Of a stretch of 64,000 nucleotides of DNA, positions 474 through 55,228 are shown one piece after another. The translations under genes were made by a program, and so were the position numbers. Numbering within the stretch: the first letter of the stretch is position 1; the number at the start of each line of letters is the position of its first letter. Source of the stretch: Tubiluchus corallicola (lineage: Eukaryota > Animalia > Priapulida); assembly GCA_030141605.1 (NCBI GenBank), contig JAQGDQ010000178.1, positions 248,001 through 312,000 on the forward strand. Reading direction: 5' to 3'. The notes under the pieces are model-generated. The model was given only the letters and a program-made list of their open reading frames with translations. It was not told the DNA's origin and searched no databases.

Positions 474-3400
474 ATGTGGACCTCTTTGCTGTTACCATTG
501 CTACTAGCCATCTCGTCACTGACAACAACTAGCGGCACCACATTGTCATCAATGTTGTCAGCGTTTCCATCAAGACAAGCATCAGCATACACCTTCAACC
601 AACCACAACAAGAACAGCAACTACAGCGTGAATACAGTTATGCAGTTTCACAACCACTGATTTACGTTGGAGGTAATAAGTGTATAAATATACTGAAGCT
701 TTAAAGCACAAGAAAACTCTCTTCGTAAATAAAGCTCAAAAATTTGTTTTGAAATTTTACATCGCTTAAATGCTGTCTTATTGCACACAGAGCTTGGCTG
801 TATAAAACCTAAAACATTAAACTCCGCGATGACAGCTAGGCGCAGCTATTTTAATGGAAAGTCATTTGAAACATGTTTTACAGTGAGTCAGTGGTGCTCA
901 CTGGGTAGTGAGTCAGTGGTGCTCACTGGGTAGTGAGGCAGTGGTGCTCACTGGATAGCGAGGCAGTGGTGCTCACTGGATAGTGAGGCAGTGGTGCTCA
1001 CTGGATAGCGAGGTAGTGGTGCTCACTGGATAGTGAGGCAGTGGTGCTCACTGGATAGCGAGGCAGTGGTGCTCACTGGATAGCGAGTCAGTGGTGCTCA
1101 CTGGATAGCGAGTCAGTGGCGCTCACTGGATAGTGAGGCAGTGGTGCTCACTGGATAGCGAGGCAGTGGTACTCACTGGATAGTGAGTCAGTGGTGCTCA
1201 CTGGATAGCGAGGCAGTGGTGCTCACTGGATAGTGAGTCAGTGGTACTCACTGGATAGTGAGTCAGTGGTGCTCACTGGATAGTGAGTCAGTGGTGCTCA
1301 CTGGATAGTGAGGCAGAGGCATTTTACCAGGTGAAGCAAACATTTTAAATTATTAAGAATTTTGTTTTCCAATTATATAACTCAATTCAAGCAAATAAAC
1401 GTAGTTTTGAGTAATATAATTATGCTGGAAACGTTTTTTTCGGGATGTATTTGAAAATTATTATTTCTCCTGCCAAATATCATAAGCTAAAATACTCTTA
1501 CCTTCTCTTTAAAGCTTAGTTCATTAATTTGTCATTCAAATCAGAGATGTCACCGCTTTAAAAGGTAAATCATATTATGTTGGGATATGTACATGTGGTT
1601 TTAATCTTAATCAGTGTGTGTCGTTACGTAGGTTAGGCATTGTAGAGCTATCTTCTGGTGGACATGTGTGCTGTGTTTGAAAATGCTAATTTAAGAAAGT
1701 GCCTCAGTAAATGTTAACTTGCAGTGGAACATTTCAATATAAACTAGATGGTTTTCGAACAAAGATTTTGTGACCCTCAATTGATCTCATCTTCAACTCC
1801 TTTTTCAAAATGGACACTACCCATTAGTTCGAACCTGCCTTATAAAAATGCAAATTCAGCAAAATGAATGTAAATTCAGAAATGAAATCTAGCTACACAT
1901 GAGAACCAGCACAAAAGAGCGCTTGCTTCTTTTTTTGACAGCAATAATAACACACGTTCAATGTTCTTTTCTAGATGGCGCAGATGTACGTGGTGAAGAC
2001 ACATACTTCACTACCACATCTTACGGTCCTATTGCATCTGGGAGCTTGCAAGGTCAAGGCTCAAAATCACAGCGGCAGTCTTACACAAGATCAGGGCAAA
2101 GCAAAGGGAAATTGTACAGTACAGATGTAGCAGCAGCAACACAGCTAGCGAAGAAGTCGAAAGCATACGAGTATAAATACAGGTATGAGACACAGTGAAA
2201 CAAAAGGGTGTAAAACGATTGAAGGAAAACTATTTTAAGCAACGAAAGAACTCATAGACTAGCTTGGACGTTGAAAATTACATCAGTTATGGCACTGAAT
2301 CTGTAACGCACACTATCACTGACTGTCATAAAAATATACTTTCAAGGGTGTGTAGTCCAAAAGGAGGTTTGAAACAACAAACAACAAACTCTTCACACTT
2401 CGCCTCTTCTTATTTTGCCTTACCACTTTCAGTTCTCTTATATATATATATATATATACATAAATTATTATTTCTCCAGTATTTTAGCCACAATGAACTC
2501 TTTAAACGCATAACTTTGTTAATACTGTTATTATCTTATTAAAACTAAGTGGTTTTCTTGTTTCAGGAATGGTCACACCTACTATCAGCCAAGACTTCTT
2601 TACTCATATGATGTAGAGCAACCTATATGGGGTTATGCGGATGCAGCCAGTACTCCATATGGTGCCGACACCAAAACTGCACCACAAAGACAAATTGCTG
2701 GTAGCAATACCAGAGGTCTTGCTGAAATATCACCTTTGTTTGGTGATGCTGCAAGCATTATCATCCGAGAAACACATAAAGACAATCAAGTTCAACATAC
2801 TGGACAAAACATAAACTACCTCAGTGAACGTCCAGCACAATATGACGCAAAGTATTTTGGCAAAGGGACATTCCCACAAATGACAAGGATAAATGCTCAA
2901 CAGCTGCCAATTGTTGAAGCAGTTTCATTGCCGCAAACTAGCAGAAGCAATCTTTCATGGGAGAATCAGCCAGTAATTGAGTACGGTAGCATTAACCTTC
3001 GAAATAACAGAAAGAGTGAAACTGCACAGAGAATATTGTCTTTGGCTGATGCCGAGCCACCAGCCAAAATTAATGTACCAAACACAATCCTAACGGTACC
3101 TCAGCAGCAATCTGCTTTACCAATCCTACTTAATAGTGAAGAAAATCAATTGGAGGCATTGGGTCCATCATTAGTCAAGTTTGTTCGACCTGAAATTTTT
3201 GGAACAATGCAACCAAGGCACACATCTCAGTTAGTTACTGTCCGTGGCAACGTGAACGTAAATGTTGGTGTTAGCACAAGCCCACACACAAGCAGATTAT
3301 ATTTACCAGAAAAACAATATGCTGCTAATACTAAAACAGTTGAATATCCACATAGAGACATAAATTCAGTTTTTCCTTTATCTGCTGGAGTTGTAGGAGA

Positions 3401-5498
3401 CAGTAGAATACAGAAGCTTCCACAACTGCCAAAAACCGAATTTAAAAAGCTAATTATCCCTAGCAGTACAATCCAGCCACAAAGGTTTGATAGTAGCAAA
3501 AACAGCCTTGGAGAATTTGCAAAAAGTTTGTTTCATAGCGGCATTGCAAGTAAGGACATAACTGGTGCATTTATCGACATAATTAGTGGAAAAGTGACAG
3601 ATGAAGAAAAGCGGCTCAATATTCAACGTCCAAGCCAAACTACGAATTCTTTGGGATCTTCAAATAGTAGAATAAACAACATTTTTGGTGCAGTGGACGA
3701 AAAGCTATTGGGGTCACCAAGAACTAGAGCTACAGCCCAAACAGTCGAGCCAGAATTTGAAATACAAGACAGAAGGCTAAGAATTTATAGGATTGATGAC
3801 CAAAATACCACCCATATATTCCAAACTATAGAAGATGATTTTCAGCATAGCAACAGAGATGATCTCCAAATAGAAACAGATAAAGCCCTTGAAGATGTAC
3901 TTCTCCAGTTGGAAATAACGGACAGAAATTCAAATCCCAAACAGACAAAAGCAAATGATGATGACGGCTCCAGACAAATAGGAATCCATTTGCCTAATTC
4001 TCCACAGGAAGTGCCAAGATCAACTCCATTTATAAAAATCCGATTTTCATCTGTTCCAGTTCAAGACCAACAAAACGAAAGTACAACAGACACTGAACGA
4101 ATGCAACCATCCAGCAAGGATCCATTAAGACCTACTGGTAACAGACAGGAGCAGCAGCCACAAATTATGCCAAAATCACAAGAAAGAGAATCACTCAGTT
4201 CATTCAGTGAGAAAAGTGTAAGTTCCAATAATTACAATCTTCACAATGGTGAAATTGATGAATCTCAGGAACGAAATGAGGAAGTAATTACAGATCACGA
4301 GAGATCAGTGCCGTACGCAAATAATATAACATACAGACCATCAATTATAGAAAATAGTCAAAATCTACACTTCCCAACCAGCTACATTCAACCATCAGTA
4401 AACAGAAAGCAATTTAGTACAACTTCTGCTATAGCTTCTTCCAATTATAATCCACAGGGTATTCCCAATAACAAAAATTTCTTCAATGTGCAAGTTGATA
4501 TAGGACATGCACAGGATGGCACTGCACAACAGCAAACAACAACTGACACCCAAAGAAACCTGCAGAGTCTAACAAACAATAACTCTGTAAGACGAACGAA
4601 TGGTGGTCTCGGATCATCAAATTCATTTCTTGATCCAAGTAAGTTAACAAATGGTTTTAACACAGAGAAATTGCAGAGAAATATTGCTAACCTAGGCATC
4701 AGCAATACTGAACTCAATAGTCTGGGGTTTAGGAAGAACTTTTTATCTGGTTTGAGAAACAGTGCTCCAAATGCAAGACAAGTTGTAACAACAAATGCAG
4801 AGGTAGACTTTGGCACACCTTTTATTGCAAGTTCAGCAACACCACCAAGTGTAAAAAACATTGAGGACACAAAAAGAGACATTTTTCACACCATTACTGC
4901 ACCTGGCCAAAATGTCGTTGACAGAAATGGACAACTGATTGTTGGAATAGTGAAAAGAGGTTTTGATAATGGAAATCTTAACCCACAAGCATCAACACTT
5001 TTTGGCAACAAGATTCAGTTAAGACAGAATATTCTGAATAGAGAAACGTTGCCAAACTACAATCTCATCGACAGAAGACAAGCTTCTGAGCCAAACACTG
5101 AATTTCTGGAATCAGCCCAGGCTGTTAACTTAGGAAATGGCATTGTTCGAAATTTCTACACTGTGAGAAACCCAATCAGGCAATCTAATCAGATCAGCAT
5201 ACGGGATACGTTTGATTCCTGGCCAAATATCCAACGAGTAGGTAACAGTCAAGGAGGTCACTACTCAAGCAGTCCTGGTCGCACATTAAACAACCCTTTC
5301 ACAGCTTCAGGTATAGGCAGACTGCCAAATGGCATTAGTGGTAGTTCCAATAACAATAGGGCCGGCAATTTTGGCAACACAATAGTAAGCCACGCATTTA
5401 GTGGGCTGCAAAACTCAGGTGGTATTGGTAGAACATTCAGTAGCAAATACCAAAATATTCCAGTAAGAAATCAAAACAGGTATCACGGTTGGTCTTGA
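474..5498 (+). CDS. Secreted protein, family member A (~1112 aa): signal peptide, shared ~86-aa domain, long low-complexity N/Q/S/T/G-rich tail
   Basis: Spliced model join(474..672,1975..2182,2567..5498) keeps frame (3339 nt) with GT/AG sites: G|gtaata 673, ttctag| 1974 (alternative same-phase acceptor at 1941), AG|gtatga 2183, tttcag| 2566. Hydrophobic N-terminus MWTSLLLPLLLAISS. Domain YFTTTSYGP...YEYKYR|NGHTYYQPRLLYSYDVEQPIWG aligns with the two neighbouring genes. Acceptor at 453 implies an upstream UTR exon; AATAAA near 5907. Confidence 0.85.
882..1316. repeat. 25-bp minisatellite, ~17 copies, in an intron of member A
   Basis: Unit agtgag(t/g)cagtggtgctcactggat repeated head-to-tail; internal agtgag/ctcact dyad. 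Confidence 0.95.
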
Positions 5499-7055
5499 AT
5501 TTCTAACTAGTTGGATAATCTTGATACAATTATTGAGTAAGAAACTAAAAATACTCAAGATTTAGATGATTGTACTTAAATATCATTAAGTGAGGAGGAG
5601 ACAGGCTCACCAAAAAGGCTTATCTTCCATAACACAATGCACAGTAGTCTGCACTGCTGTCACTTGCCAGCAAATTGTCTTATAAAACAAGACAGGAGGG
5701 AGAAACATTAAAAAAATACTTTAGAAACTCAAAATTGTTTAACATTTTTTGTGCTTAATGTAAAAAATGATTGGCAGCAAGTAAATAATTATGTAAATAT
5801 TGTTAATTGTTATAGTTGATAAGATGTTAATAATAATATGAATTCTGTTAGCAATGGTTGCTTTAAATTGGTGTGACGTTTTTTTTATATTTGAAAACCA
5901 AATGTCAATAAATGATGTTAGTAATAAATACACTTATGTCACGTGATTTTGTTTTTATTTACGTATGAAATGCACAAACAAACATATGTAACACACTCTA
6001 TGCACAAACAGAGTGTATATTAACATTGACAAAAGACATGTAAAGGTTAAGGGTGCTTGATAATTAACTAACCCTAACATCTGATCAAGTTTTGATTGAA
6101 CTTACTAAGGGTGAATTTAAGGCCTAAATTTCAGTTTAGCTTTCCTTCTTGCGAAAATATAATAATAAATAAATAAACAATAGATAAATATTATGTATGA
6201 AAAGCAGGTGAAGAAAATAAAGAAAACGCAAAGAGGGAGATGTAGAAAAAAAGAGAGGGAGAGAGAGAGAGAGGGAGAAGAAATAGACAAAAAGAAAAAC
6301 GACAGAAAGAGAAAACGTGGATAATAGGATCAGGATCAAGCAAGGACAAAGAGAATAAGGTACAAGAAACAGTAAGTAAATAAAACAATAAAACCACTGA
6401 AAATGTCGATCGTGCAATAATTTTGAACCGCTCTGTATGTGTAGGGGCCGCACTACAAAAGCTGTGAATTCAGTAGCTTGGGCTGAGAAACAACTCAATC
6501 ATCTTTGCGTGGAGAAAAATAACTGAAGCAAACTTACATTGAGATAACAACTCACAAAACATCTTACTAATGTAAACTATATTTTTATCATATAATAACA
6601 TTTTTAATAAATAAATTAATCTAAAATAGAGACAAGTTTCATAATTTCTAGCAAACCCATTTTGTAAATGTAAATTTTAATTTTTGTAAATTGTAACTAA
6701 TTAGTATTGTAACGTTGATTAATTTTAACGCGGTGCACGATACCAATCACTTTGATTAACACGTGTCAAAGAAAACTACAATCAGACTGACTACTCGTGG
6801 AGAAAGTGACCAGCAGTGGCGTGATTAATTTCACTTTCTAGGATACTAATCAGTTTAGTGAGAAGACAACGGAAGCTGACAGACAAGTGGGTCAATACAG
6901 TCACAAGACAATGCGAATTTAGCGTCTGTCTGATCAGATCTGAAGGTCAAGTACGACCTCGGGTGCACGTTGATCATAATTGCATGCTGACCAGACCGAG
7001 GACATGTTTGTATAAACAAATGGGGAGTGACAAAGGTACAGGGGAGGGAAAACGA

Positions 7056-7313
<258 letters not shown>

Positions 7314-8064
7314 ATCATTACGTTACGTCATAAATATTCGAAACGTCCATATCAATGAGAGAAAACTTTTTTGCCACCACTTAATGGATGTTAACAAGGT
7401 ATTTTCATAAAAACAGCTTTAAAGTAACAACCTGACCTTTAATGAGCAAGACATTGCAGACTGCAGAGATGACCGCCCCAATCACACCCAAGTGGATTTA
7501 CGATACGATTTTGTAATATATTAAGTGCGTACAGCTTAAAAGACAAGAAAAGGGGTACCTGAAGTAGGTTTCAGAAAAATTGCCTTAAGAAATTATATCA
7601 CTTTACAGCAATTTTATGTGTATATCATACTCGCATTGAAAGGAAGTTTTGTTTGTTTTCATTTTAAATGTTACGTGACGTCACTACGCAAAAGTAAATC
7701 AGACGGAGAAAAGGCAATGTTAAATTATGTCCCAAAAAATCTCCATGCAAATCTATATTACTTAGCATTTCGCTTACCTGTTTGAAAGACTTATGTAACA
7801 AGAAAAGAAAAGTTTTAATTATTTAAAAAAAATTTACCAATTCACCAATGGTAAAATGGCGCTGACTCACCTTTCAGGGTGCACCACCCAGTAACCAAAA
7901 ATGCATTTTTAATCTTATTCACAAGATACAGTAATTTAAAATTTTAGTCGCTTAGTGAAGTGGGCACTACGAATGCTCTGATTAATTTTTCAAACTTTAC
8001 ACAATGTTATCTAAAGTTGTTTCAAATGCCCTGTCGTCGGGAGTTTAAATTTACTACTGTTTTT

Positions 8065-8068
8065 GCTG

Positions 8069-8133
<65 letters not shown>

Positions 8134-8167
8134 ACTGCTACTGCTACTGCTACTGCTACTGCTACTG

Positions 8168-8234
<67 letters not shown>

Positions 8235-8245
8235 CACGACTACTA
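8065..8245. repeat. Compound (CTG)n/(CTA)n trinucleotide microsatellite
   Basis: Direct reading; grades from CTG through CTGCTA to CTA. Confidence 0.97.
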
Positions 8246-9018
8246 TAATTTAGACAATTAACAATGAGAAAAAAGACTACCTCCTTACAATAAGAAAAAG
8301 ACTGCCTCCTTGCTTAACTCATAAAATAAGGAGTCTAACTAATCCAGGGTGGTGGAAATCTATTGCTAACTTGAGGAGGTAGCATAATAAAACGCCCTAA
8401 GCTAAACACAACAGGTGACACATTTTCTTATCTCATTCATAACAAAACTAAAAAAATATTCACGCTTTCTAGTGCAAGATACTGGGCATTTCAGCTAAAT
8501 CACACACTAGATATTTCCCAAAGTTGTGCTGCTAGATGAAGACGACCTTCACTCAGCATTCTCGGTCAGCAACAATTTGACCGCAAAATCGTTACTTAAG
8601 TTCATGAATAACCAAACGTAGGCAGATGCCTCAGGTACGCTAGAAGTAGTGAAAGTAGGATAAATGGAACAATCATCAACAGTTGTAATTAACTCCTAAC
8701 TACCCTCACGCAAGTGGACACAAATAGGGCAAAACCACGCAATGTCGTTACATCACTAAACTCCAGCTCAAATGGAACCTATTGCCCGCAGATTTACGAA
8801 ACAGGGTGCGTTCTTGGAAAATAGAATTGAAAAGATGCATACCAAAATTCGAACAGCTGCCTGACAAAAGCAGTAGAACACCATGCTTCTGTTTCTCCTA
8901 ATGGACATGCCACTCCAAAAGAGGCACTAGTACACGACAGAGGAAATCAATTGACAGCCTGTAATTACTGCGGTTCGCTGGAAATTTTTTTCTGGGTCAT
9001 GAGGCAATGGATGACATT

Positions 9019-9024
9019 TATAAA
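9019..9024 (+). promoter_or_regulatory. Putative TATA box of family member B
   Basis: TATAAA about 90 bp upstream of a strong donor (|gtaagt, 9114) that would splice a short UTR exon to the ATG exon. Confidence 0.5.
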
Positions 9025-9326
9025 GCAGTGACAGTGACAGTGATGGACGCCACAATAGGTTGAGTATTACACAGTGAAAGTAGCAGGAACAGATTTGACT
9101 ACAATACTGATTTGTAAGTTTACTTAGTTAACTTACTGCACACTTACATTACGTTTTATATGTTATAGTATTTTAACTTAGTACTGACTTTACACTAGTT
9201 GCATTTGTCTCAAATGGCTGGTTAGCGATACCGGTGAAATCACGACTTCTATGTTGTGATTCAGTGAAGCACATTCAGTGTACAACACACTTAAACAAGT
9301 TTTTATTATTTAATATTGCAGGCAGG

Positions 9327-11256
9327 ATGAATTCTCACCTGGTAATTCTACTATCTGTCCTTGGTGCAGCGTACAGTACATATGACAGCAGTGGGACAGA
9401 TGGGTACTTAAATGCCCCATCAAACTATGGAACAGCTCAACAGGTGGTAGTGCCTGCACAACAAACTATTTCTGGAAGACAGGTAGACTTGCAAGGTACA
9501 CAAGTAGTTGTGCCTGACAAAGTAGTTGGTGCTGCAAGAACCGTATCACCAGAGTATTTTACTACCACCCGGATAGGGCCAGTAGCCAGTGGAGGATTGA
9601 CGGGATCTGGAACAAGGAGCAGCAGCTTGTCTTACAACAGACAAGGTTCAGCCCAGGGAAGCTTGTATAGTAGGGATCAAGCTGACGCATCTGAAACAGC
9701 ACAGAAAACCAGAGGCTACAGCTACAATTATAGGTGAGACGGTTGTGTAATTTCATAAGGTTCATAATATTTTTTCTACTGCACAATGCATTGGGTTTCT
9801 CGAATCCTAAACAGGGTAAAGCCACATTATGACAGAGTGCCGTAAGTATTGGTTTTGCAGCTGTATACTGAAATGTAAGTTAAGTCGTCAAACTTAAAAG
9901 CAAACAATCAAAGAAAGCAACTTCAAAGAACACAGAGTTATTGAAATTCACACTTGCACAGTCACTGTCACTGTGCTTGCATCGTTTGTTTGCTTCAAGT
10001 GTTTTCATAACTGTAGGTCAAAACAATCCACTCTTTAAAATTTTGAAACGAAATATACTATTTTTAAAAAAATGACTTATGTGAAAGAATTATTGACACA
10101 CAAATACAATTTCACGTTCGCGGGACTAGTTTTTCGCTGTTACTTTCATTCGCCATTTGCTAGTTGACGGGCACTAGCGAATGCATTTCGGAAACCCACT
10201 GCACAAAAACATGTGCTGTACCTCTCAGTTCAGGTGTGTTAGTTTCTGACGAACTACACACGTTCGACAGCTAATGCGTGAGCACAGCGGTAAATTTGAA
10301 ATTTCAATTTTTATCTTAAAACTTACCCAGTTTTAGTACAACACACTCAGTATCCTACAGTAGCACGTAACTTCAATTTTCTCTTTCACAAACACGTGCA
10401 ACACGCTCGTGCAGTACTTTTGCTGTTGAAAATTATGTTAGTGTGTCATCAATAGTTAGGCATGCCCGCCATTAATTAAGATTTCAATCTATAATTTAAT
10501 TATCAGAAACGCTTTTGCAGTATTAATTGTGTTAAAACGAATACTTTTCATCGGACTTGAAAATGGGGTGGTAGTATATGAAAAATCATCCTGTTTTCCT
10601 TTAATGGAGCGTTTTCTTGCAGAGAAGGCCATCAGTATGCACAGCCGAGGACACTCTACAACTACGACCTCCAGGAGCCAGTCTGGGGAGTAGCAACCAA
10701 AGCCGAGGTTTATAGAGGAGATGGTGGGGATGCTGGCCTCACAGTTGACAATTTGGGCAGCAGCAGGAGCACTATTGGCGGCGGTTTGGGAATTGGAGGA
10801 GGTTTTGGCCGTGTCTCAGCTTTGAGTGGAACATTACGTACAGGAACCTCTAGTGCCTTGACTACTGGAAAAGGACTGTCTCTCGGTAGCAAAATCGGTA
10901 CTGGAATAGATCAGCTGAGAAGTGGAACAACCGGACTTCACACTGGAACAGTTCGCGTAACTGGAAGAACAGGCAGCGCTGGATACGGTAGCGGCATCCG
11001 TGCAGGAAACACGGCAGGTGGATACGGTAGCGGTATCCGTGCAGGAAACACGGCAGGTTATGGAGCAAATGTTGGCAGATACAGAGGCACTCCTGGAATC
11101 AACGGTCCCTATCAGATATGGGCTTACCGAGACGCTGTTCAATCGCAATTTGGAAAAGGTAGCAAGCCATGTTCTTTCTACATCGGTGGCCCATGCAGTG
11201 GAATGGAATTAATAGCAGGTGGTTACGGTGTCCGGCGCATACCAGTGATATGGTGA
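9327..11256 (+). CDS. Secreted Gly-rich protein, family member B (346 aa)
   Basis: join(9327..9733,10623..11256)=1041 nt; AG|gtgaga donor 9734, ttgcag acceptor 10622. Signal peptide MNSHLVILLSVLGAAYS; shared domain EYFTTTRIGP...YNYR|EGHQYAQPRTLYNYDLQEPVWG; Gly-rich tail with 2x GYGSGIRAGNTAG. Probable non-coding exon ending 9113 (|gtaagt) spliced to 9322. Confidence 0.9.
10193..10604. mobile_element. Dispersed repeat copy 2, inside the domain-splitting intron of member B; ends in ...ttttcctttaa (TTAA end, Kolobok/piggyBac-like by inference)
   Basis: Matches 1-388; terminal gaaaaatca..ttttcctttaa also at 55205-55228. The element may extend left to ~9894 (ttaaaagcaaaca). Confidence 0.7.
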
Positions 11257-13770
11257 TCTGTTTCAATATATATGTATCCACAACGAAAGAGCTCAAAAAA
11301 CCAAAAAGGTCTCAAACTTGCTGCATGTGTTTCGTTATGTTTAATATTAAATAAGTAACAAAATAACCAAAGCTGGCCTTGTGTGTGTCACAAATGCTTA
11401 CATGTGTAATTCGTATAATTCAGGGTAATAATCCAGAAATACTGGTAGACTGTTGCAAACTTTTTTGTATAGAATCTAAATAATCAGTGATGCCTATAAT
11501 GTAGCTGTGATTTCTTTTTACATTGCATTTGTAAATAGCTTTTTAATGAATTGTTAATAAAACGTTATTAGTTTTTTGCAGAAAACATGAATGATGCTGC
11601 ATTAATTTCCAGATCAACAATAATTATTAGGTAGCCAAACAAACGCTCACTAAAAAACTTCCGATAACAGAGCAATAGCAAGTGCTGCATTAAAACATGT
11701 AGATGTGCTTACATTAAAAAAAAACACCCAAACAATACAACATAGCTAATACAAAGAGCATCTAATTAATATTGAAATAAATTAATTTGTGTACAAGTTG
11801 ATTCAAAATAAATATAGTACATCGAATGTAACATGAGAGACATTTTTTCATTTAACGCAATTTTCACAACAGTTTGAGTTATAGTCACTAAGTCTAATTA
11901 TTCACAAAGGCAATTAGACTTTTAACCAGTTTATATAACATCAAATTTAAATTTCAGTATTTTCTAATCATTCGTGCAGATGCTGGTATAGAAAACAAAA
12001 GATTTGGATGTTCACAAGCACTTCTAATAATAACGCTGATCATAATTGCAACAGTTTTAAACAGCATGAACTTGGCCATATATCTGTGAGAGATACGAGC
12101 TTTTTGAATTACAGAAAGTGTTTAAAAATTAATTTTTTCTTTCAATTCAAAAACTGGGGTACACCAACACGACAGAGTTTTTCACTTTTAAAATATCCTA
12201 AACTTAGACTGTTTCACGTGCGAAACTAGAAGAATTATACCTGTTACCGTTATCATTTTACAAGAAGTGCAAGAACTAATGTCATCAGACATTATGACCA
12301 ATTACACTTAGAATATTTAGAAAACGCCAATAACTGAGATAACAACGTTTAGTATAAGCTCCAACACACTAAACTGGCCCTAATAACGTTTTGTATCGAG
12401 CAACCAAGTTGCAACGTAATGAACTCATATAATTATTGTCTAGGCTGACATTTCTTATTAATTATACCGAACCCTCATACTAAGGGCTCCTGTAATTGTC
12501 TGGTTAACGGGTAATCAGCCGGGTAAGACGAGTAATGAAAATTTCCCCTATAGTAACACACATATATAACAATAATGAATATGGGGAGTGCTGGTTTAAT
12601 CATAGGATAAATATACAAAACTTAAATGCAAAATAGCAGTATATTGCGGCTAATCAAAGCCCATAACAACAACAAACAACATGTTTCTCTGCTTCAATAA
12701 TGAATGGCATCTAATTCCCTAATATACAGTAAACAAGAAAGCAAATAAGTAAGTAAATAAGCAAGCAAATAAGTTAGTAAGAAAGTAAGTAAATAAGTAA
12801 GCACGTTAGTAAGTAAAAATTTATTATATCCAAAATGAAATTTCGTGGTTGCAATAAAATGAGTAGACTCAACAATACACACCCTTCCAGAATAAAACAA
12901 CACACACATTCCTACATTCACGTTACCATACACATTATGCAAAAGTATACAAAGAAAAAATCTACTTACGTACTTCCCCCATAAATTAGTGAACGTCACA
13001 TGAGTTACTCCTTGCGCACTCGTCTTGAATATTTTTACTACTGATGTATTTTTGCGATAATTGCATAGCGTGACATAAACTTACTGTAAACTAGAAACTT
13101 ACTTCAAATAAACTAGAATAACTATCTTCTGTCTGGCTGGGAAAATATTCTTTATACCATTATTTTACTGTTTAATACAAACCAAATTAGCATATATTTC
13201 AACACAGGTGTAGTGAAAAACAGAATTTTTACTTAATGTTAGCAAAGCTTCACCCCCCCCCCAGCTTGACCGGCCCTAGCCTGAAGCCCTATTGACTTTT
13301 TCGCATCCGGATGCTACATAAACGTCATTTTATAAATATTAACGGCTTTAAATACTATGCGCAAATAAGTGAAAATTCTATAAGCCTTTCATTGAAAGTA
13401 ACCATGATGTAGCCCAGTCCAGTGACATTCCGGTTCTGCATGTGGGAGTGAAAAAATGACCGTATGTGACAACAGGTACAATAACAAAAAAGCCAACATA
13501 GGGCAGTTATAGTTTAATTCAAGGTTAGACACAAAGGAAACACGTTCTTATCTTGTTGGAACTCCGCAATGTACGAATGAAGACTCTATACACCGATGCC
13601 TTCCATATATGCATACCTGTGGCACAACTAAAACTTTTCTCATTATCAATGCTAACCATCTAGGAGGAGACACCGGACAGCGTCTTGGCTATGGTTGCAT
13701 GTATACATATCCTGCCTCAAAATACCAAAATGCAGTAAAGAACTGTACAGAACAGGTAATGAACCTGTGT

Positions 13771-13816
13771 GGTGGTCACTCGTCCGTTACCTACAGGCCC
13801 TGCATTGCTTAACTTA
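13771..13816 (-). mobile_element. 5S rRNA-like segment, probably a decayed SINE remnant
   Basis: Minus strand aagttaagcaatgcagggcc...ggacgagtgaccacc resembles the 5S internal control region (AAGTTAAGCA...GGATGGGTGACC); rest of 5S not evident. Confidence 0.4.
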
Positions 13817-14244
13817 GTTAACTAACTTAACCAAGCATGCACAGTAATCACTCAGCTATTCACTTGACACCCAATCGCGAAAAACACTTGTAAATGGTCC
13901 AGGTAGGACATTAATGTAAACTAATACTGTATCTCCACACAGAGAAAATGCACTAAAACAAAATGCTGATTTTCTATTGATATTATTGCATATTTTTAAG
14001 TGAACATTTAACTATCCAATCTGCACATCTCTGCAAATCTGCAAATTCATAGAAAAAGACTGCTGTTGCTGACACCTTGATTTACACTGACAGGCAAATC
14101 TGTAGACCAAATAAATCAAAACATAGCAAAGCAAAAGTAAGCCAAATTCATATTAATTCAAATCACCTCCCAGCAGTGACACCTGTTGGTGAATAATTGT
14201 TTGCAAATGCCCTTAATGCCTTACTAAGCTGTAAATCATCTGAC

Positions 14245-14721
14245 TAGCCGGGCCACATTAAACTTTCCCGCAATTCCTGCGGGCCACAGGCAGTTTGATC
14301 AAGGAGCCAAGTACAGTAAGGCCTAATAACGATTTTTTTGCATCCGACCTGCTTACATCATTACTACTACACTCAAGAAACTATTTTAGAAGTTATTAAA
14401 ATTTATATTACAAACCATATATTTCTACTTTCGGGACAGATAGTGGTAATTTCATTACAATGCATATTAGTAATGTGCATCACACAGTCTGTGTTGTACA
14501 GTGACATTAAGCTACAACCGTCTTGTAAGGGTTAATGGCATCCGATCTAGTAGAAAAAACTACCTGCACTATCTTTGGGATCGTGGCACGGACTTCAGCT
14601 GGATACACTCAATTAATCGCCTGGGCCGCACTTTCATTAGGTTGACAAATCTCCTCGCGGGCCGCACAAATTCTCTCGGCGGGCCGCAAGTGGCCCGCAG
14701 CCCGCAATTTGCACACCCCTG
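14245..14721. mobile_element. hAT-like non-autonomous element remnant
   Basis: Repeated gcgggcc(g/a)ca subterminal motifs, ending tttgcacacccctg; the other terminus was not found. Confidence 0.45.
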
Positions 14722-15917
14722 CTGTAAAACATGTCACAGTGACATAGCTTACGTTGCACCCCCAAAACCTACCATTTCCATTTGAAACTAACTCCGAATT
14801 TTTGTTACACCAACTAATAAGTTCTATCAGGTAGCAAAAAACCAGCGGAAGTTTTGATTGCAACATAACAGAAGTTTTAAGTACACAAGTCAAAAGCATA
14901 AATGCCAGGAAAAATTTCATATGTCACTAATGCTAAAATTTACAGCATGTTCTCTATGTATCCACAATTTTCAATACAAAACTAAATAAGGCATTCTTAC
15001 AAAAAGCTGGTACAGGTTCTCACTTCTTTAATGGCTCAGCACTCACCAATTTAATGGCTCTGTGCGGTTATTGTACTCGTCCCCGAATTAAGTAATTCTA
15101 GATACCATAGTGCAGAGGATAAAATCCCCTTGCTTCTTGACAACAAATCTTTATCAGTGCTTTTTTATCTTTTTGACGTGAACTGGTTGATTTCTTTATT
15201 GTTTTGCTGTCATGTACTGAGTCCTTTAAATACGTTGATGTGGCCATTTTTCAAACGATGATTAGCTGACATTGTCCCAGCATTTAAATTCTTAACATAC
15301 AAAAGTTTTTCCGCCATAAAGCTCTACCCTTCTTGTCTATTTGACAGCAGACCTCTAGTCAAAAGCTAATGTAATATGATACCACATTTTAAAATTTCAA
15401 CTTTGTAGGGCAATTGCTTCTAAAGATACTATAATCTCAATATTGTCACATTTTTTATGCATCACCAAATACGTTTACATAATTATTTTAATCCTTGTAA
15501 AGAATAAGATGACACGTTGCCATTCTGACATTTGTGTTTTCTGATGAACAGTCACACAGTCACAATTTAATGATTTAATATAGCTATGTATATTATCTAA
15601 CTGCATTAAATATAAAAGTCAGTAAACTCATGAAATTATTTGCATCAATTTTATCTTTATTATTTCTGAATTATATACAACATATAAATATAATATTAGT
15701 TAGAGTACAGCTTTAAAGAGAGAAATAAGGACAGTTATGTGTAAAAAGCAATTGCATCACTCACAAGGCCACAATATATTATACTACTAACACTAGATTC
15801 CAGGTGCCATTTGGCAAAAGAAAGAAAATTCAAAAATTATTTTCATTAATGTCATATCAAATAGTATTGATTTCACGTGGGCTTTCCAAATCTTGATTGT
15901 CAAATTCGTCCATCTTT

Positions 15918-17521
15918 TTAATAGGCACGACCATAACCGCCACCACTGCCACCACCTACGATGGCAGCACCTCCAGTACGGAAACCAGCAGTTCCAGAAC
16001 CAGATGCAGCGCCCTCACCTCTGTAGACAGACGGGTTGTCAGCCAGACCCCAGATATCTTCAGTGATGTCATAGGAATACAAGAACTTGGGCTGCTCATA
16101 GTTGTGTCCTTCCCTGCACATTTACACAAACGATGTTTTAAATGTCAGCAAAGAGTTAGAAAAGTTAAAGCAAGATTCATTCTTACATTAAAAACGAATC
16201 AAACTAATGAAAAATCATCATGCAACAGCTAATGAATCCAATAAATTAGGAAAATCTACTAAATAATGATAAAACAGACAATTACAAGTAAGTGGTAACC
16301 AGATGTAAAATTTTAAGAATACTTAACATTTGCTTTTCCCTGTTCTAATAAATAAGTTAAGAAATAAAATAACAAAAATAATTATATCTACACTAACCAT
16401 GAAATAAATATGACCTTAGTGATTTGTAAAAGGTGAGAATTCTGACCTTAGCATTGCATTTCAGTTCAAAAGAATCCCAAGAGCAAACTTGGGAATTGTT
16501 TGGTTTTGATACATTCATGTTCGATTTCCCGGTGACTAACATAACCCAAATTCAAAATAAGAGAGCACAATGATACAACAGCACTGGTAAAATTTTGTTT
16601 TAGCACATTTCTAATCTCTAAGCTTCTTAAAAGTCAACTTAGTCATAAATTAGTGAAAAAAAACAGAAAATATTTTACATAAACATGCCACATTTTGCCT
16701 TACTTAATGTTGGATTTGGAAAGCTTCTAATATTTGACAACACACAAAAAATGCCTATTAATTCAATGACAGTGTAAGTCCCCTGCAGAAAAATTGTATA
16801 ATATTATGTAAAATGTAAGTTTCTGTAAGTTGTATTTGTTTCAAAATTGATATAACGAGACTCCAAGGAGTTCTGAAATGAAATTATTCTATTGTACATA
16901 CTCTAATAATAAAAAAATTTATAAAACCGCGTTGCAGAAATACACACAGGTCAGAAAATAACAGTGAAATGTACAGTTGTTTGAAATTCTTATCATTATT
17001 GCTGAGAAACCTTACTGGCTAAAGCCAGGTAACCTAAAAGTATAAAGTGTTAATCAAATTGTAAATTATGTAAAGAAAACCAGCAATGAATGCTGCACGT
17101 CTTACCTGTACTGATATTCATAGGAACGAGTTTTCTTGGCATTCTCGGTTGCTGATGCCTGGTCTCTAGAGAAAAGACTTCCACTTGCATCTCCCTGTCG
17201 AGTGTAAGAAAGGCTGCTTTCCCGGGACCCAGAACCCCTCAAGCCCCCGGTGATTTCTGGTCCAAAACGAGTGGTAGTGAAATACTCTGGTGCTTCTGTA
17301 GCTCTGACCACTGTCTGACCACCAGAACTACCTCCAGTTACCACCTGTCCTCCCAGCTGGCCAAGGTTGTGCACACGGGCCACTGTCTGACCACCAGAAC
17401 TACCTCCAGTTACCACCTGTCCTCCCAGCTGGCCAAGGTTGTGCACACGGGCCACACGGTTTCCATAACCAGTGGCATAAGCACCAGCTATGACAGCAAA
17501 AAGAAGAGCAAGGACCTTCAT
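15918..17521 (-). CDS. Secreted Gly-rich protein, family member C (203 aa)
   Basis: complement(join(15918..16113,17106..17521))=612 nt; AG|gtaag donor, tgtgcag acceptor. Signal peptide MKVLALLFAVIAGAYA; 72-bp tandem duplication (VARVHNLGQLGGQVVTGGSSGGQT x2); shared domain EYFTTTRFGP...YQYR|EGHNYEQPKFLYSYDITEDIWG; ends GGGSGGGYGRAY. UTR intron ~17530-17984. Confidence 0.9.
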
Positions 17522-18060
17522 AGTAGAACCTGAAAAAAATGAATCGCAAGTTGAAAAATTGTCCTTAACTCTTTTGTTCTTAGTAAAATAAATAATGATA
17601 TTACTGAAATATAATCAACTAAAAACTAATAAATGCTAATACATCGCAGCTTATTGAAACAATAGGAACTACAATATTCAAAGCTTTATGATAAACGTAA
17701 GTGACGTATTTTAAAATACCACTTCCTTAGTTCAACAATGGCTTTAAAGAAAAACTGCTAGAGAATTCAATAAACTTGAACTAATCTAAATTTAAGTCTA
17801 AAAGAAAAAGGAATTACATGAACAATAATCCAATAATACAAGAAAAGATCCAATAATATTTTTATAGTAAAATTACTTTGCACAATTCATTGATGAATAG
17901 CAAAAATCAACAAATTGCAATAACAATGCTAACTAACTAACTAACCAAGAAAAACAATCTCAAGAAAGTGAAAGTGTTTCCTACCTGTGCAGAAAGCTGG
18001 AAGAGTGCTGGATCTGTGAGCAGGAGCAGGCTGATAGTGTTAGCCAACGCAGTCCTCCCT

Positions 18061-18067
18061 TCTTATA
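18061..18067 (-). promoter_or_regulatory. Putative TATA box of family member C
   Basis: TATAAGA on the minus strand ~75 bp upstream of a CAG|gtagg donor at 17984, mirroring the layout of member B. Confidence 0.45.
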
Positions 18068-38230: not shown

Positions 38231-38926
38231 CATAATTTTTTTAATTTATAATTTTGAAGGCACGTTTTCTGATACCTACTTCAAGGATATTGGCTCACCT
38301 TTTTATCTTACATCATTCTCTATTCTTTTTTGCCAATCAATTCAAAAACTAGGTTTCACCTGAATGCAGATCTACATAACATGAACTATGATCTATGAAA
38401 GGCGGAATTATTTTCAGTGTTTGTGTGTCTGCTCGCTTGTTTGATATGTGTTCGGTTTGTTCATTTGCAGTACTGCACTCGATTCTGTTAAAAAAACTTG
38501 TCAGTGCAGTTCATAATTCTTTTTAATATGTAATCCTACATTCTTAAGGGTCAGTTGCTGTGATTAAATTATGACATCTGAAAAAAGACAATGGATAAAA
38601 ATGTTAAACAATGTCACAGTATTGTTAATTATATACAGCATTATAGTTCTGTATCTATACAGTAGGTCTGGAAATCATTTTCACAGCATTGTGTGAAGTC
38701 AAAGAATGTGAAAAAAACAATGATCAGGAATGGAATGTCTACCTGGCTAGCTTAAATAAAGCGCAAATTTGGAGGACAATTAGAAAAGTGGGAAAAGAAG
38801 GATATCACAAGACGGTGCAGAATTGATCACTTGAGCTATTCTTGTATTACTGTCGTAGCACTCAGTGGAATGTTGATTTGACATACTTTGCATTACTCAA
38901 AGCGGTATTCTTTATTTAAGACAAAA

Positions 38927-40861
38927 ATGCATTTCATCGTGCATGATCATGTTTGCCGTACTTTCACTGGCAAAGCTGTGGCCAGTATTTTGCACAATAT
39001 TGTACTTACCATGATAGTTTTTCTTGGTTTTGTAGTCCTGGCTTCTTCAAGAATAGATACAACTCGGTGCAATGACGTAATGAAATCGCAGTATTATTTA
39101 ACTGTTAAGGACAATCGTGAGCCTATGAAAGATGTTACTAAGTTCTACGGTAAAAAAGATGGTATTACTTTCTACTTTATAAGATTCGAATTAGTGGAAG
39201 ACCCAGCACGACTGATTGGTTTGGGAAGCTCAGAGAATGACAGATACACATACGCATTCAATTTAGTTATTATAAGGTCTGTAAAAGACTATCTCAGAGA
39301 ACAAGATGACCAACCCTTAAGCTGGACGGCGATAGTCAAATGCTCTTCAGAGCTACACCAGGAGGAATTGAACATAAAAATTAAAGTTACTATAGAATCA
39401 GCGAATGAACACCCACCAAGAGCAGCACCGGGAACGCAAGATAGGTATCCTGTCTCAGAAAAAGCTAAGATTGGAACAATGTTAGCAAGTTTTGTGGTGC
39501 TAGATGACGATGAGAATGCTCCCTACAATTCTTTTTCAACGTGTTCCATCAAGGGCAATAATTCCAAATTTGAAGCAAAAGCAAGACCCAGTACCAACAA
39601 TTGTGAGATTTTCTTGCGCAAGAAATTAGATTATGAGCAGCAGTCGCTGTATAAGGTCGAAGTTACGATGCTTGATGCAGGTGTTATTCCAAAAGAAGGC
39701 ACACATGTATTCACTTTCGATGTAGCAGATGTCCATTTCAATCCTGTATTTGATGCAGAAATGTATTACGCCACTATAAAAGACAATGACCCAGTAGGGA
39801 CGATAATAAATGTCCAGCCAAACAGAATTTCTGCTGTCGACGGTGAATCGGGCAAAAGTGATGAACACATAAGATACAGCCTGGTAATTGGAGGTAAACC
39901 TTTTCAGTTTGTCAATGCACATAATAAAGAAACGCCAGAGGAACGTGTAGGGGACATAAAAATAATAGGAATGATTCGAGAACTCGAGTATTTCATGCCA
40001 CTCAAAGCCACTTACGTGAAGGATGGCGAACCCGAGTACTACACTGCAATGACAGGCATACACATTACAGTGCAAATTCAAGGACCACCCCCTAGATTTA
40101 CTCAAAATTTGTACAAAGCTACAGTTGTGGAAAATCTTCCTGAAGGACGGAGGGTATTGGTTGTCCAAGCCAAAGATTTATCCCGGACAAACATCCCGGA
40201 GTTTTCTTATAGTCTGAAGACAAAGACTGGCGAATCAGTAAGTGAGTTTACAGTGGACGGCTATAATGGTATAATAACAGTTACGAGAAAACTGACTCCA
40301 GGAGTCCATGTTTTTGTTGCAGTGGCTGCAAATGCTGATGGGTCGAGGGAGGCTGACGTTGAGGTGACCGTTTTGGCAGAAATTAATGAGAATCCAAAGT
40401 TCTCAAAGGACTTTTATGATTTCAAATTTGCGAAAAACGTTTTGGTCGATGATGGCGTTAATGCAGTAAGTGCAACACCTGCAGACGTTGTTAAGTTTAG
40501 AATGCTTACTATGCACGAGTACTTTGTCATTGAGTCTCCTCAGCAGGGAATCGGCATCATTACAGGCACGGATATGATGATAGAAACTTTGCCGTTGGGA
40601 AAGTACAGTTTAGTTGTCCTTGCCTGCATAGATGGAAATGTAGCAATTGGTGAAGATGAGTTGTGCAGTGCAGTTGAAGTAGAGGCCACTGTAGTAAAAG
40701 AGATCGATAATTGGATAGAGGCACTGCGTGATGATTCAACGACTAGCTACAGCATGAACGAAGTTCTCATACTCGTAGCTTTTGATTTGGTTTTGTTTGG
40801 CATCGTATGCGTCCTAACCTACATGATTATTATGCAGCAGCGATACAAAATGGGAACCTGA
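38927..40861 (+). CDS. Intronless cadherin-repeat single-pass membrane protein, copy 1 (644 aa, ~5 EC-like domains, very short cytoplasmic tail)
   Basis: ATG 38927 (aligned to the paralog start); N-terminal hydrophobic segment; cadherin motifs NEHPP, VSEKAKIGT, LDDD, LDYE, DAG, NPVF, ENLPEG, EINENPKF; C-terminal TM VLILVAFDLVLFGIVCVLTYMII then MQQRYKMGT*. Confidence 0.9.
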   Translation: MHFIVHDHVCRTFTGKAVASILHNIVLTMIVFLGFVVLASSRIDTTRCNDVMKSQYYLTVKDNREPMKDVTKFYGKKDGITFYFIRFELVEDPARLIGLGSSENDRYTYAFNLVIIRSVKDYLREQDDQPLSWTAIVKCSSELHQEELNIKIKVTIESANEHPPRAAPGTQDRYPVSEKAKIGTMLASFVVLDDDENAPYNSFSTCSIKGNNSKFEAKARPSTNNCEIFLRKKLDYEQQSLYKVEVTMLDAGVIPKEGTHVFTFDVADVHFNPVFDAEMYYATIKDNDPVGTIINVQPNRISAVDGESGKSDEHIRYSLVIGGKPFQFVNAHNKETPEERVGDIKIIGMIRELEYFMPLKATYVKDGEPEYYTAMTGIHITVQIQGPPPRFTQNLYKATVVENLPEGRRVLVVQAKDLSRTNIPEFSYSLKTKTGESVSEFTVDGYNGIITVTRKLTPGVHVFVAVAANADGSREADVEVTVLAEINENPKFSKDFYDFKFAKNVLVDDGVNAVSATPADVVKFRMLTMHEYFVIESPQQGIGIITGTDMMIETLPLGKYSLVVLACIDGNVAIGEDELCSAVEVEATVVKEIDNWIEALRDDSTTSYSMNEVLILVAFDLVLFGIVCVLTYMIIMQQRYKMGT

Positions 40862-41093
40862 CTCTAATAGCCTATTGTTTGCTGCCAACTTCAATAATTG
40901 TCACCTTTGAATGTTATAATAATTTTTTACACACAATTTCCTGTCTGTTTCTTTTTTAAAAGAACGTTTTAATTTTTTCTTGCTCATTTTTCTATTTGTT
41001 TTCTTTTTTAAAGGAATGTTATACTTTTTTCATGCATGCTTTTCTGTCAGTTATCTTTTTTTAAAGGAATGTTATAATTTTTCTGCACAGTTT

Positions 41094-43686
41094 TTACTCT
41101 TTTGCTTCTTCAAACATTTTTGGAATTTTCGCCTTAATCTTTTGTTTTAATTCTTCTGCATCTGCCATAATCTTTTTTGGAAACACAAATTTGGAAGTCC
41201 GCCTTGATACATTCTCGTCAGCCGCTTTTTCTGTGACCTTTCCTTCTTTTGCATCTACTATTTTTTTATTTATGTCTACTACAATGACGTGCGAATTTTG
41301 CTGTCTCTTAGGTGAAAGAGTGGCAGCACCATCTGCTTGTTTTACCTTAGCTTCATAAATCGGAATTACTTGTGTTGTTGTCATGGTCGTAAGACTCGGC
41401 ATGTTTTTAGCTCTCTTTTTCTTCTGATGATTTTTTCCTGCATAATGTGATACTGCGTGTACTTTACTAGTAAATGTTACTTGACACAAGGCACAGTAGC
41501 TTATATCTTCTTCTTCGTTTTCTTTGCATCTCTTGCTGCTGATGCTTAACCTGTTCGTGAAACTTTCCTCTTGATCGACTAGATGACCTCTCGGGGTGTC
41601 CTCGCACGCCATCTTTCTGTCGCTTGTAGTTTTTCCCAAAGCGTTAAGATTCACTGTTAATTGATCTGGGGTAAAACTGTGATTCCGAGCTTTCATAAAC
41701 TCTCCTATTTCCTTCAGATGCTTTTTAGCAGCTTTGTGTTGCTTACCGTAGTAATGTTGTATCGTATTCGTTTCACCCGACATCGTTACTCTGCACAAAG
41801 AGCAATGATTTTTTACTTGTTCTAAGACATCGCATGCAGACTCTTTGTGATGATTAATCACAACTTCGTTTGTTAAAAATCGACTTGAAAAAGTGCTTGT
41901 ACTTCCCGTTTCAGACTCGGCATTACGTGTTACCAAATTTATCACCTTATTAGAAAATAAAAAATAATTCTACACTAAGTATTTCAAGTGTTGAAGTGAC
42001 AGTGTTGTATCTTAAAAAATTAAATCAATGTCTAGTTAGTATTGTCATCTGGTGACACTGTGTGAAAAGCATAATCTGCATACATAATTATATAATAATA
42101 AATATTTGGCAATTAAATTTAATAGAGTCTAAGACCGAAAAATGTGAGCAAAAAGTTATTTTCGGACGTTTTTGCAAGTTCTTTTTGTCAACGTAAGCAG
42201 TTGTATGCAGGTATTCGTTCCGGTCCATGCGTGCGTGGAAGCAGGTAGAAGATGCGGTGGCCACTGCTTTGTTTTTTAGGAGACGCCAGGTCTTTAAAGT
42301 GTCACTTTCCGGGAGAAACCACGCGAAATTTCACGAAACTGGTGCTACTAAAAGAACCAATGAAAAAGTTTTTGGAGCCATTTTGAAAAGAATAAGTACA
42401 TTTGTACGGTGGTAAAGAAAAACAATCTACAATATGCAGAAAGTTTTGTACACAAAATTCCAGTAAACTGCAGTGTGATGTGATTTCCCACAAAAAAGTG
42501 AAACGGTGGTTCTATTATTTCCACTAAGCAAGCATATGAGATTCTTGCGCATTATTAATCACTGATGAGCAGTTCTAATAGCATTCGTCAAATCGTCATG
42601 CTATTCTGAAAGTTTCAAAATAATACCGATGCAGTTCAGAATGCTCTTGTGAAGTTTTCCTAGCTTTTGTTCAAATTAAGAAGCTACTATAAAGGGTTAT
42701 CTCTTCAGTCAGCTATAATTATTTTTTATTTCTCAGGCCAATAAAACCAGTTTTTGGCCTGAGTTAGGACCAGTACAGTGACAGAACACTGACGATCAAT
42801 TCTGAAATAAGATTAATTCTGAAATTGATCAAACAAGATAAATACTGAAAAAATTTGAGTTGGCTTGACTGAAAGAAGTCAATTCTTGTCTAATTTATCA
42901 TTTATTTTCTACACAAAAAGAGTACACGAAGAACACATCACGCAAAATCGAACAATACAAAAACCCTGGCAAATAATGTTACTCCACTTAATCCTGCAAA
43001 ACACTTATTGATAATGAGTTGAAATGAGAAGCAGTTATGGAAAAATCGGTCAGCTTGGTCAACTTACTGGCATCAGTGGTGGGGATGCTAACGCTAGCTT
43101 TTTCCGATGTTTATCGCTCACTATGTGTTGTTGATAGGGAGTTGGTCCACTGAATGACTTACAGCAATAGTTGCAAGAGAAACTTTCCATCTCGTGGTGT
43201 TTTTCTAGACAATTCTGAAAAAGATCAATTTAGTTCATTCTTCGTGTCCTGTTTGTGCCGCAACGACATTTTCTTCATGCGTGACTGTCTACTTAGTGAC
43301 AAGCGTGTTCATCCCTTTCATTAAGCCCAAATTCAGGGAAATGATTAGAATGCTTTTCTATTTTTTTTTATTCGTTTTTAATTATTCAATTTTAATTAAT
43401 TAATAAGTTTTTAGTTATTCGAGGCCTTAAAACACAAGAAGAATCTCCACTGACATGAAGCTTAAAAAAATTCGTCTTGAAATTTTATACCACTTACCTT
43501 AGCTTCATAAATCGGAATGACTTGTGTCGTTGCAATGGTCGTAAGACTTAGCATGTTTTTAGAATTCTTTTTCTTGTGATGGTTTTTTCCTGCATAATGT
43601 GATACTGCGTGTACTTTACTAGTAAACGTTTCTTGACACAAGGCACAGTAGCTTATATCTTCTTCTTCGTTTTCTTTGTTACTTAG
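41094..43686 (-). CDS. Matrin/U1-type C2H2 zinc-finger protein (ZNF385/ZNF346/ZMAT-like), 5'-incomplete, at least 3 exons and 4 fingers
   Basis: Phase-0 exons 43498..43686 (YCALCQETFTSKVHAVSHYAGKNH, AAG|gtaagt), 43068..43214 (tttttcag|, CNYCCKSFSGPTPYQQHIVSDKH, CCA|gtaagt) and 41094..41945 (HCSLC..HYYGKQH; YCALC..HYAGKNH). All fingers are C-x2-C-x12-H-x5-H. Start exon not located. Confidence 0.75.
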
Positions 43687-44447: not shown

Positions 44448-45134
44448 GGCAAGTATAATTTTGAAGGCAAGTTTTCTGATACCTACTTCAAGGATATTGG
44501 CTCACCTTTTTATCTTACATCATTCTCTATTCTTTTTTGCCAATCAATTCAAAAACTAGGTTTCACCTGAATGCAGATCTACATAACATGAACTATGATC
44601 TATGAAAGGCGGAATTATTTTCAGTGTTTGTGTGTCTGCTCGCTTGTTTGATATGTGTTCGGTTTGTTCATTTGCAGTACTGCACTCGATTCTGTTAAAA
44701 AAACTTGTCAGTGCAGTTCATAATTCTTTTTAATATGTAATCCTACATTCTTAAGGGTCAGTTGCTGTGATTAAATTATGACATCTGAAAAAAGACAATG
44801 GATAAAAATGTTAAACAATGTCACAGTATTGTTAATTATATACAGCATTATAGTTCTATATCTATACAGTAGGTCTGGAAATCATTTTCACAGCATTGTG
44901 TGAAGTCAAAGAATGTGAAAAAAAAACAATGAGCAGGAATGGAATGTCTACCTCGCTAGCTTAAATAAAGCGCAAATTTGGAGGACAATTAGAAAAGTGG
45001 GAAAAGAAGGATATCACAAGACGGTGCAGAATTGATCACTTGAGCTATTCTTGTATTACTGTCGTAGCACTCAGTGGAATGTTGATTTGACATACTTTGC
45101 ATTACTCAAAGCAGAGTTCTTTATTTAAGACAAA

Positions 45135-55079: not shown

Positions 55080-55228
55080 ATAGTTGGGCTCACCCGTCAT
55101 TAATTAAGATTTTAATCTATTATTTAATTATCAGAAATGCTTTGGCATTACTATACGTATTAAAATGAATACTTTTTACCTTAGTTCAACAGGGGTAGGG
55201 TATGAAAAATCAACCTTTTTTCCTTTAA
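55080..55228. mobile_element. Dispersed repeat copy 3 (3' part only)
   Basis: cattaattaagattt..tttaattatcagaaa.gcttt...gaaaaatca..ttttcctttaa shared with 10450-10604. Confidence 0.65.

Follow-up and report, generated by a model that had tools for sequence, protein, structure and literature searches.

A cysteine-free domain with alternating conservation defines a family of probably secreted proteins in priapulids, candidate components of their cuticle

Introduction

In the corneous beta-proteins of reptiles and birds and in the silkmoth chorion A and B proteins, a polymerising beta core of fixed length, rich in Val, Ile and Pro or in Cys, is combined with variable Gly/Tyr arms, and the genes lie in tandem clusters. 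Insect cuticle proteins join a signal peptide and GGX or AAP(A/V) repeats to a conserved domain (PMC12426002, in part); the R&R consensus reads G-x8-G-x6-Y-x-A-x-E-x-GY-x7-P-x-P (10.1101/2020.01.08.899344, in part). Scalidophorans bear a moulted cuticle with chitinous scalids and teeth (PMC5011709 and PMC4021568, both in part), and priapulids, whose decay-resistant cuticle makes up most of what survives in the Cambrian record, serve as a living proxy for early moulting animals (PMC5011709, in part). Here, 64,000 nucleotides from the priapulid Tubiluchus corallicola (assembly GCA_030141605.1, contig JAQGDQ010000178.1, positions 248,001 to 312,000, forward strand; hereafter the window) are analysed, in which three genes, A, B and C, share an 84-residue domain. 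The domain is real, undescribed and tightly constrained, and it defines a large secreted family in priapulids.

Results

The shared domain and its alternating conservation

The domain runs from YFTTT to WGxA over 84 amino acids (aa) and is ungapped and Cys-free in A, B and C; the initial annotation of this locus, made from sequence alone, had described a block of fixed length without indels or Cys, and rightly so. Identity amounts to 45/84 (A/B), 46/84 (A/C) and 56/84 (B/C); the 86 residues and the B/C identity of 58/86 given earlier hold if the upstream PE of B and C is added. Between the genes, the first half of the domain matches at tblastn E-values of 1e-13 to 1e-24, far above chance. The flanks, called unrelated in the initial annotation, are not entirely so: B, C and the Priapulus caudatus protein XP_014678922.1 (P0004) remain alike for about ten residues past the domain (B/C 61/94). 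A six-frame profile scan of the window returned six exon pieces and no fourth domain copy, the next best hit having an E-value of 2.7. The domain is under purifying selection, since nonsynonymous divergence (pN 0.27-0.34) is well below synonymous divergence (pS 0.81-0.90).

In the 30-row alignment (the three window genes and 27 database rows), columns 1-9 form a [YF]FTTxxYGP cap, and the second exon contributes G[HY]xYxQPxxLYxY and [IW]G; there is no Pro among the 1440 residues of columns 13-60 and no Cys in the domain. Internal gaps are absent before column 90 of alignment A4. Across columns 13-59 (about 47 positions), conservation falls strictly on every second residue (G13, G17, G19, [RK]21, [FY]27, [RK]29, G31, A33, G35, L37, D41, A43, A45, E47, A49, K51, R53, Y55, Y57, Y59), and the even columns there are mostly variable. 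In a set of four sequences, 19/28 odd columns were invariant against 2/27 even columns (p=4e-6), and the best-segment alternation score of this set was reached by none of 1500 column shuffles, with the choice of segment allowed for; the alternation reappeared in 26 sequences that had played no part in its discovery (0.81 vs 2.34 bits, p=4e-7). Taken one by one, columns 13-30, 31-40 and 41-53 each show it; in columns 1-12 and 61-84 it weakens. The alternating Tyr pattern noted earlier is thus real, but as part of an alternation that extends well beyond the Tyr run.

The odd face consists mainly of Ala (20.6%), Gly (20.4%), Tyr (13.3%), Arg (10%) and Leu (8.3%); this invariant face, about 41% Gly plus Ala, carries fixed Arg, Lys, Asp and Glu residues as well as Tyr. 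The even face is composed mainly of Ser, Thr, Arg, Ala, Gln and Glu, with about 2% Val, Leu and Ile. Between B and C, the odd face of columns 13-67 is identical at 28/28 positions, against 56/84 for the domain as a whole. Conservation with a period of two residues in a segment without Pro is expected of a beta-strand with one constrained face. Its maintenance over about 47 residues without parity change or indel would be unusual for a small globular domain, and suggests either very long strands or turns that keep parity, in a single register.

Gene models in the window

The spliced models of genes A, B and C are open frames of 1112, 346 and 203 aa, which bears out the three genes and the lengths predicted in the initial annotation, and all four introns have GT-AG borders. 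As had also been predicted, an intron splits the domain; in 3/3 genes it is a phase-2 intron after domain column 59, inside the Arg-60 codon of YxYxYR. The features are as follows:

474..672, plus strand: gene A coding exon 1, with a signal-peptide-like start and hydrophobic core
1975..2182, plus strand: gene A coding exon 2, with domain columns 1-60 from 2004
2567..5498, plus strand: gene A coding exon 3, with domain columns 60-84 (2567-2639), then a 952-aa tail rich in Ser/Asn/Gln/Thr
9019..9113, plus strand: gene B TATA-like box (9019) and putative non-coding first exon, with a GTAAG donor at 9114; predicted from sequence only
9327..9733, plus strand: gene B coding exon 1, with a signal-peptide-like start and domain columns 1-60 from 9555
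10623..11256, plus strand: gene B coding exon 2, with domain columns 60-84 (to 10695) and a Gly-rich GYG tail with two Cys
15918..16113, minus strand: gene C coding exon 2, with domain columns 60-84 (16113-16041) and a short Gly-rich tail
17106..17521, minus strand: gene C coding exon 1, with a signal-peptide-like start, a 24-aa duplication and domain columns 1-60 from 17284
17985..18067, minus strand: gene C TATA-like box (18067), initiator-like TCAGC (18034) and putative non-coding first exon, with a GTAGG donor at 17984; likewise predicted

An AG acceptor immediately precedes gene A coding exon 1 (474), and therefore the first exon of gene A probably sits to the left of the window. Gly-rich tails, as noted earlier, are found in B (25.8% Gly) and C (35.0%) but not in A (6.2%), whose protein is rich in Ser, Asn, Gln and Thr.

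Compared with sequencing run X1, gene A exon 3 (2567-5498) has five listed differing sites, three silent and two missense, and gene B a single silent difference at 11073; neither stops nor listed indels occur in gene A exon 3 or the gene B exon. Run X1 behaves as genomic DNA, its contigs continuing through the introns without splice joints; run X2, presumed to be RNA, matched repeats only, or nothing.

Several repeats lie in or beside these genes. In gene C, an exact 72-bp tandem duplication (17308-17455) accounts for the 24-aa repeat ahead of the domain; intron 1 of gene A holds a tandem array of a 25-bp unit (882-1320). An interspersed repeat occurs just 5' of gene A (1-386) and in the gene B intron (10193-10579), the two copies being 86% identical, with a partial copy near 54991-55228; it is very deep in run X1, as befits a high-copy element. 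A second high-copy element, recognised by depth and loose ends in run X1, lies between genes B and C at about 14233-14721.

Family and relatives

A HMMER search with a seven-row profile against 1,835,955,588 representatives (E<=0.001) gave 28 matches, 25 of them with the domain. Three long multi-stretch repeat proteins (P0029-P0031, E 7e-8 to 4e-4) were discarded, their matches being attributed to composition; P0027, which has the second domain half only, was omitted from the column statistics and the tree. Among the 20 of the 25 relatives whose sources were examined, 13 are RefSeq models of Priapulus caudatus and seven are unnamed Logan open reading frames (ORFs); a cluster listing and a final search added three more from P. 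caudatus, so that all 16 named relatives are from this one species (Ecdysozoa, Scalidophora). Named arthropod, nematode, tardigrade or spiralian proteins were absent from the matches. Identity between the window genes and the database relatives does not exceed 70% over 60 columns. XP_014678922.1, XP_014664989.1 and XP_014667205.1 have the same domain, with up to 60/84 residues identical to gene B, and the same register after the exon junction as the window genes. In a word-indexed search with the first domain half, one relative was found among 1158 candidates, namely XP_014678922.1; with gene C exon 1 alone, none was found among 907. Metagenome scans gave 92 and 617 pattern matches, none of them confirmed.

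In 15/27 database rows, or 18/30 with the window genes, the block reads on past the junction without a change of register (G62, Q67-P68); it stops exactly at column 60 in 8/27, including all seven Logan ORFs, and similarity is lost at the junction in the remaining four. A stop at column 60 would be expected of raw ORFs that run into an intron there. The rows taken together, continuous and interrupted, lend the splicing independent support.

The tree is mostly unresolved (3/27 branches starred), and the window genes do not form one group. Gene A pairs with P0012 at 94/81, slightly under the bar, and orthology is not claimed. A starred subfamily (98/95) comprises P0014, P0023, P0025, P0032, P0033 and P0034, in which L37 is replaced by Asp and G13 by Ala, with length and alternation kept; two of its loci, LOC106809623 and LOC106809624, have consecutive numbers. 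In XP_014678922.1 the second-exon half of the domain is repeated at the C-terminus, and in P0027 it is joined, judged by eye, to a leucine-rich-repeat-like protein; both arrangements reflect either exon duplication or gene-model errors.

The family is known so far from priapulid records only. Since the search used a seven-row profile and scalidophoran genomes are few (PMC10280001, in part), its range within the Scalidophora could be wider, and remote relatives elsewhere may exist. Judged by the relatives alone, the window probably comes from another priapulid or scalidophoran.

Secretion and arms

The initial annotation had described signal-peptide genes, which agrees with a hydropathy heuristic applied to 30 members: 27 start with Met and a hydrophobic core, and none of these 27 has a later membrane-like stretch; two of the three others, both labelled partial, have such a core at an internal Met. 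The arms are of low complexity, rich in Gly/Tyr, Ala/Pro or Ser/Asn/Gln, and highly variable in length; at least two GYG motifs occur in 10/30 members, and at least two AAP/APA motifs in 2/30. In an atlas look-up, the P0004 domain gave no usable feature match; for P0006, arthropod low-complexity clusters were listed, one of them pupal cuticle protein-like, at 0.75-0.81, values that lie within the chance range and serve as a lead only.

Comparison with described families

The initial annotation had not recognised the domain, and the profile search that it proposed leads to the same result, with no match in Pfam, NCBIfam or PDB sequence searches; the best PDB E-values (0.14, 0.27 and 1.5) were dismissed as chance. 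Its statement that the domain is not of the R&R type also stands: the R&R consensus, in strict and relaxed form, has no match in A, B, C or P0004, and PF00379 (Chitin_bind_4) matches none of the 30 alignment rows at E<=1. The domain contains no Cys, and the familiar six-Cys pattern of CPAP proteins and peritrophin-A (ChtBD2) occurs in 0/4 proteins. For Tweedle, CPF/CPFL, CPCFC and CPLC there was no Pfam match (e.g., PF11018) in the 30 rows, and the C-x5-C and KPEVxFxxY motifs (PMC12426002, in part) were not seen in alignment A4 by eye. The RefSeq labels of the P. caudatus relatives (keratin-, loricrin-, elastin-, fibroin- or FUS-like, some uncharacterised) reflect the arms only and leave the shared domain unannotated. 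As family assignments these labels were rejected; P0004 has no Pfam family at E<=5, and eight relatives have no precomputed Pfam domain, neither an intermediate-filament rod nor an RRM.

Structure prediction

Monomer prediction followed by a Foldseek search had been proposed as a check. Two AlphaFold runs gave models of low confidence (mean predicted local distance difference test score, pLDDT, 38 and 54; predicted template modelling score, pTM, 0.15-0.17) with no strands and one weak helix, placed by both at about columns 41-53; neither Foldseek nor VIA returned a match for the second model, a result of little meaning at such low confidence. The helix is at odds with the period of conservation in these columns, 2 instead of 3.6 (power at 180 degrees 12.1, at 100 degrees 0.37; shuffle p=0.0004). 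Covariation among the 30 rows picked no consistent strand register. A hairpin register based on volume, charge and mutual information was abandoned when two encodings disagreed; a register centred on Gly31 pairs R21-D41, F27-G35 and L25-L37 attractively, with a z of only 2.0 and fourth rank.

Other features of the window

The DNA is of animal type, with a GC content of about 35%, spliceosomal introns and many repeats. A 2.86-kb tandem duplication (38247-41101 and 44454-47310, 92.5% identical) carries in each copy an intron-free cadherin-domain ORF of about 650 aa, closed by a hydrophobic segment and only a very short tail; between the copies, on the minus strand, lies an ORF with two zf-met C2H2 fingers (41097-41969). 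An exon at 56493-56705 (plus strand) matches NopRA1 (PF16201, E 1.6e-8) and is presumably URB1-like.

Discussion

A proposed multigene family of priapulid cuticle proteins

The reading preferred here, to which a probability of about one half is given, is that the genes with this domain form a multigene family for proteins secreted into the priapulid cuticle, whose core would self- or co-assemble as extended beta-strands packed face to face into fibres. The epidermis would secrete proteins whose core lacks a stable fold as a monomer and gains beta structure on assembly. Copies or paralogues would then meet through their invariant faces, packed in a single register; such packing would account for paralogues being nearly identical on this face and variable, among polar residues, on the other. 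Close packing of sheet on sheet would suit a Gly/Ala face that carries fixed positive and negative charges, and odd faces as nearly identical as those of B and C would let different members enter one polymer. The Tyr/His/Trp-rich end (columns 55-84) could offer sites for chitin stacking or cross-linking, and the unrelated Gly/Tyr-, Pro/Ala- or Ser/Asn/Gln-rich arms would fill the matrix and tune its stiffness by tissue or stage. The initial annotation had named cuticle, chaeta, tube, egg coat or adhesive; since 16/16 named relatives are priapulid, ecdysozoan cuticle is favoured over chaeta or tube.

Several observations weigh against a cuticular, beta-assembling core. The conserved face is not hydrophobic, unlike that of a usual buried sheet; helix propensity exceeds strand propensity in columns 41-53 (1.15 vs 0.81), the AlphaFold monomers contain no strands, and covariation singles out no register. 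The P. caudatus records, like the rows that continue across the junction, are predicted gene models, the tail of gene A is unlike the other arms, and egg-coat or gland-secretion proteins would look similar.

Alternative readings

A chiefly chitin-binding domain, a priapulid analogue of R&R that folds into strands on a chitin fibril, with the invariant face touching chitin and the arms forming the matrix, is compatible with a cuticle role and differs in the partner of the conserved face. The fixed aromatics on one face (F/Y27, Y55, Y57, Y59, H/Y63, Y/W65) speak for it, and an R&R-like squid domain that folds only on binding chitin oligomers, through aromatic and polar residues (10.1101/2020.01.08.899344, in part), would fit the poor AlphaFold monomers. 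Yet a face of about 41% Gly plus Ala with charges of both signs should fit protein-protein packing better than a neutral sugar surface, and neither an R&R motif, nor a six-Cys pattern, nor a Pfam chitin-binding family is found; this reading is regarded as possible but doubtful.

A use of this assembly core outside the cuticle, in some other extracellular material such as an egg envelope or a glandular adhesive or mucus, is considered improbable. Gly/Tyr arms beside a conserved core are known from insect eggshell proteins too; the presence in a single species of at least 16 paralogues whose arms differ widely, and AAP and GYG motifs, recall cuticle families and argue, weakly and indirectly, in the other direction. 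An ordinary small globular fold, acting as an interaction module with a helix at about columns 41-53, would agree with both AlphaFold runs and with the helix propensity of these columns, but is hard to reconcile with their period-2 conservation, with a mean pLDDT of at most 54, and with the absence of a hydrophobic core or of turn-length variation; it is very unlikely. Least probable is an aerolysin-like reading, with the long amphipathic strand as the stem of an oligomeric beta-barrel pore, for although long alternating Ser/Thr-rich strands are typical of such stems, there is no Pfam or PDB match to the aerolysin or ETX-MTX2 families, the outward face would need Val, Ile or Phe where Gly, Ala, Arg and Tyr are observed, a receptor domain is missing, and the arms are of low complexity.

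Significance

Read as secreted cuticle proteins, the family is a good and concrete candidate for the main priapulid cuticle component. New here is the strict alternation over columns 13-59 without Pro, Cys or indel. In the full-text literature, searched also with six of the RefSeq accessions, covering few subscription journals and judged from titles and the starts of abstracts, nothing was found on this family or on priapulid cuticle proteins. The naming of 16 RefSeq models, misnamed or uncharacterised, is now corrected, and the domain profile can serve for searches in the genomes of kinorhynchs, loriciferans and nematoids. Such a survey bears on the question of whether R&R-type or other proteins made up the cuticle of the ancestral ecdysozoan.

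More tentatively, the priapulid cuticle may be built on a scaffold of its own, an unbroken beta-ribbon of about 47 residues (about 16 nm if fully extended) with a Gly/Ala face common to dozens of paralogues that co-polymerise into one fibril with interchangeable arms. Such a ribbon would add to arthropod CPR-chitin and nematode collagen a third way of building an ecdysozoan cuticle; if the core does assemble, then, being short, Cys-free, non-repetitive and easily expressed, it would be a new template for protein materials.

Comparison with known systems

Like the arthropod CPR proteins, the priapulid family is large and secreted, with a single conserved, Cys-free domain, for which a beta structure with its aromatics on one side is proposed, and with arms of low complexity, GGX/AAP in the CPR proteins; in contrast to them, it lacks the R&R motif, and its 84-aa core alternates without a break over columns 13-59 and has an invariant face rich in Gly and Ala. 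The shared design appears to be convergent. Silk fibroin is known for packing through Gly faces, and it shares with the suckerins and with the present family a small-residue, beta-forming segment beside Gly/Tyr-rich amorphous segments (for the suckerin design, PMC9999432, in part). The beta modules of suckerins, however, are 10-15 aa long, repeated and bounded by Pro (PMC9999432, in part), whereas the priapulid proteins normally have one non-repetitive, sequence-specific core each, conserved between paralogues. From the corneous beta-proteins and chorion proteins, the priapulid core differs in having no Pro or Cys, a polar variable face and no Pfam match. With its core and arms, the family probably functions in the manner of CPR proteins, suckerins, corneous beta-proteins and chorion proteins, and is a member of none of them.

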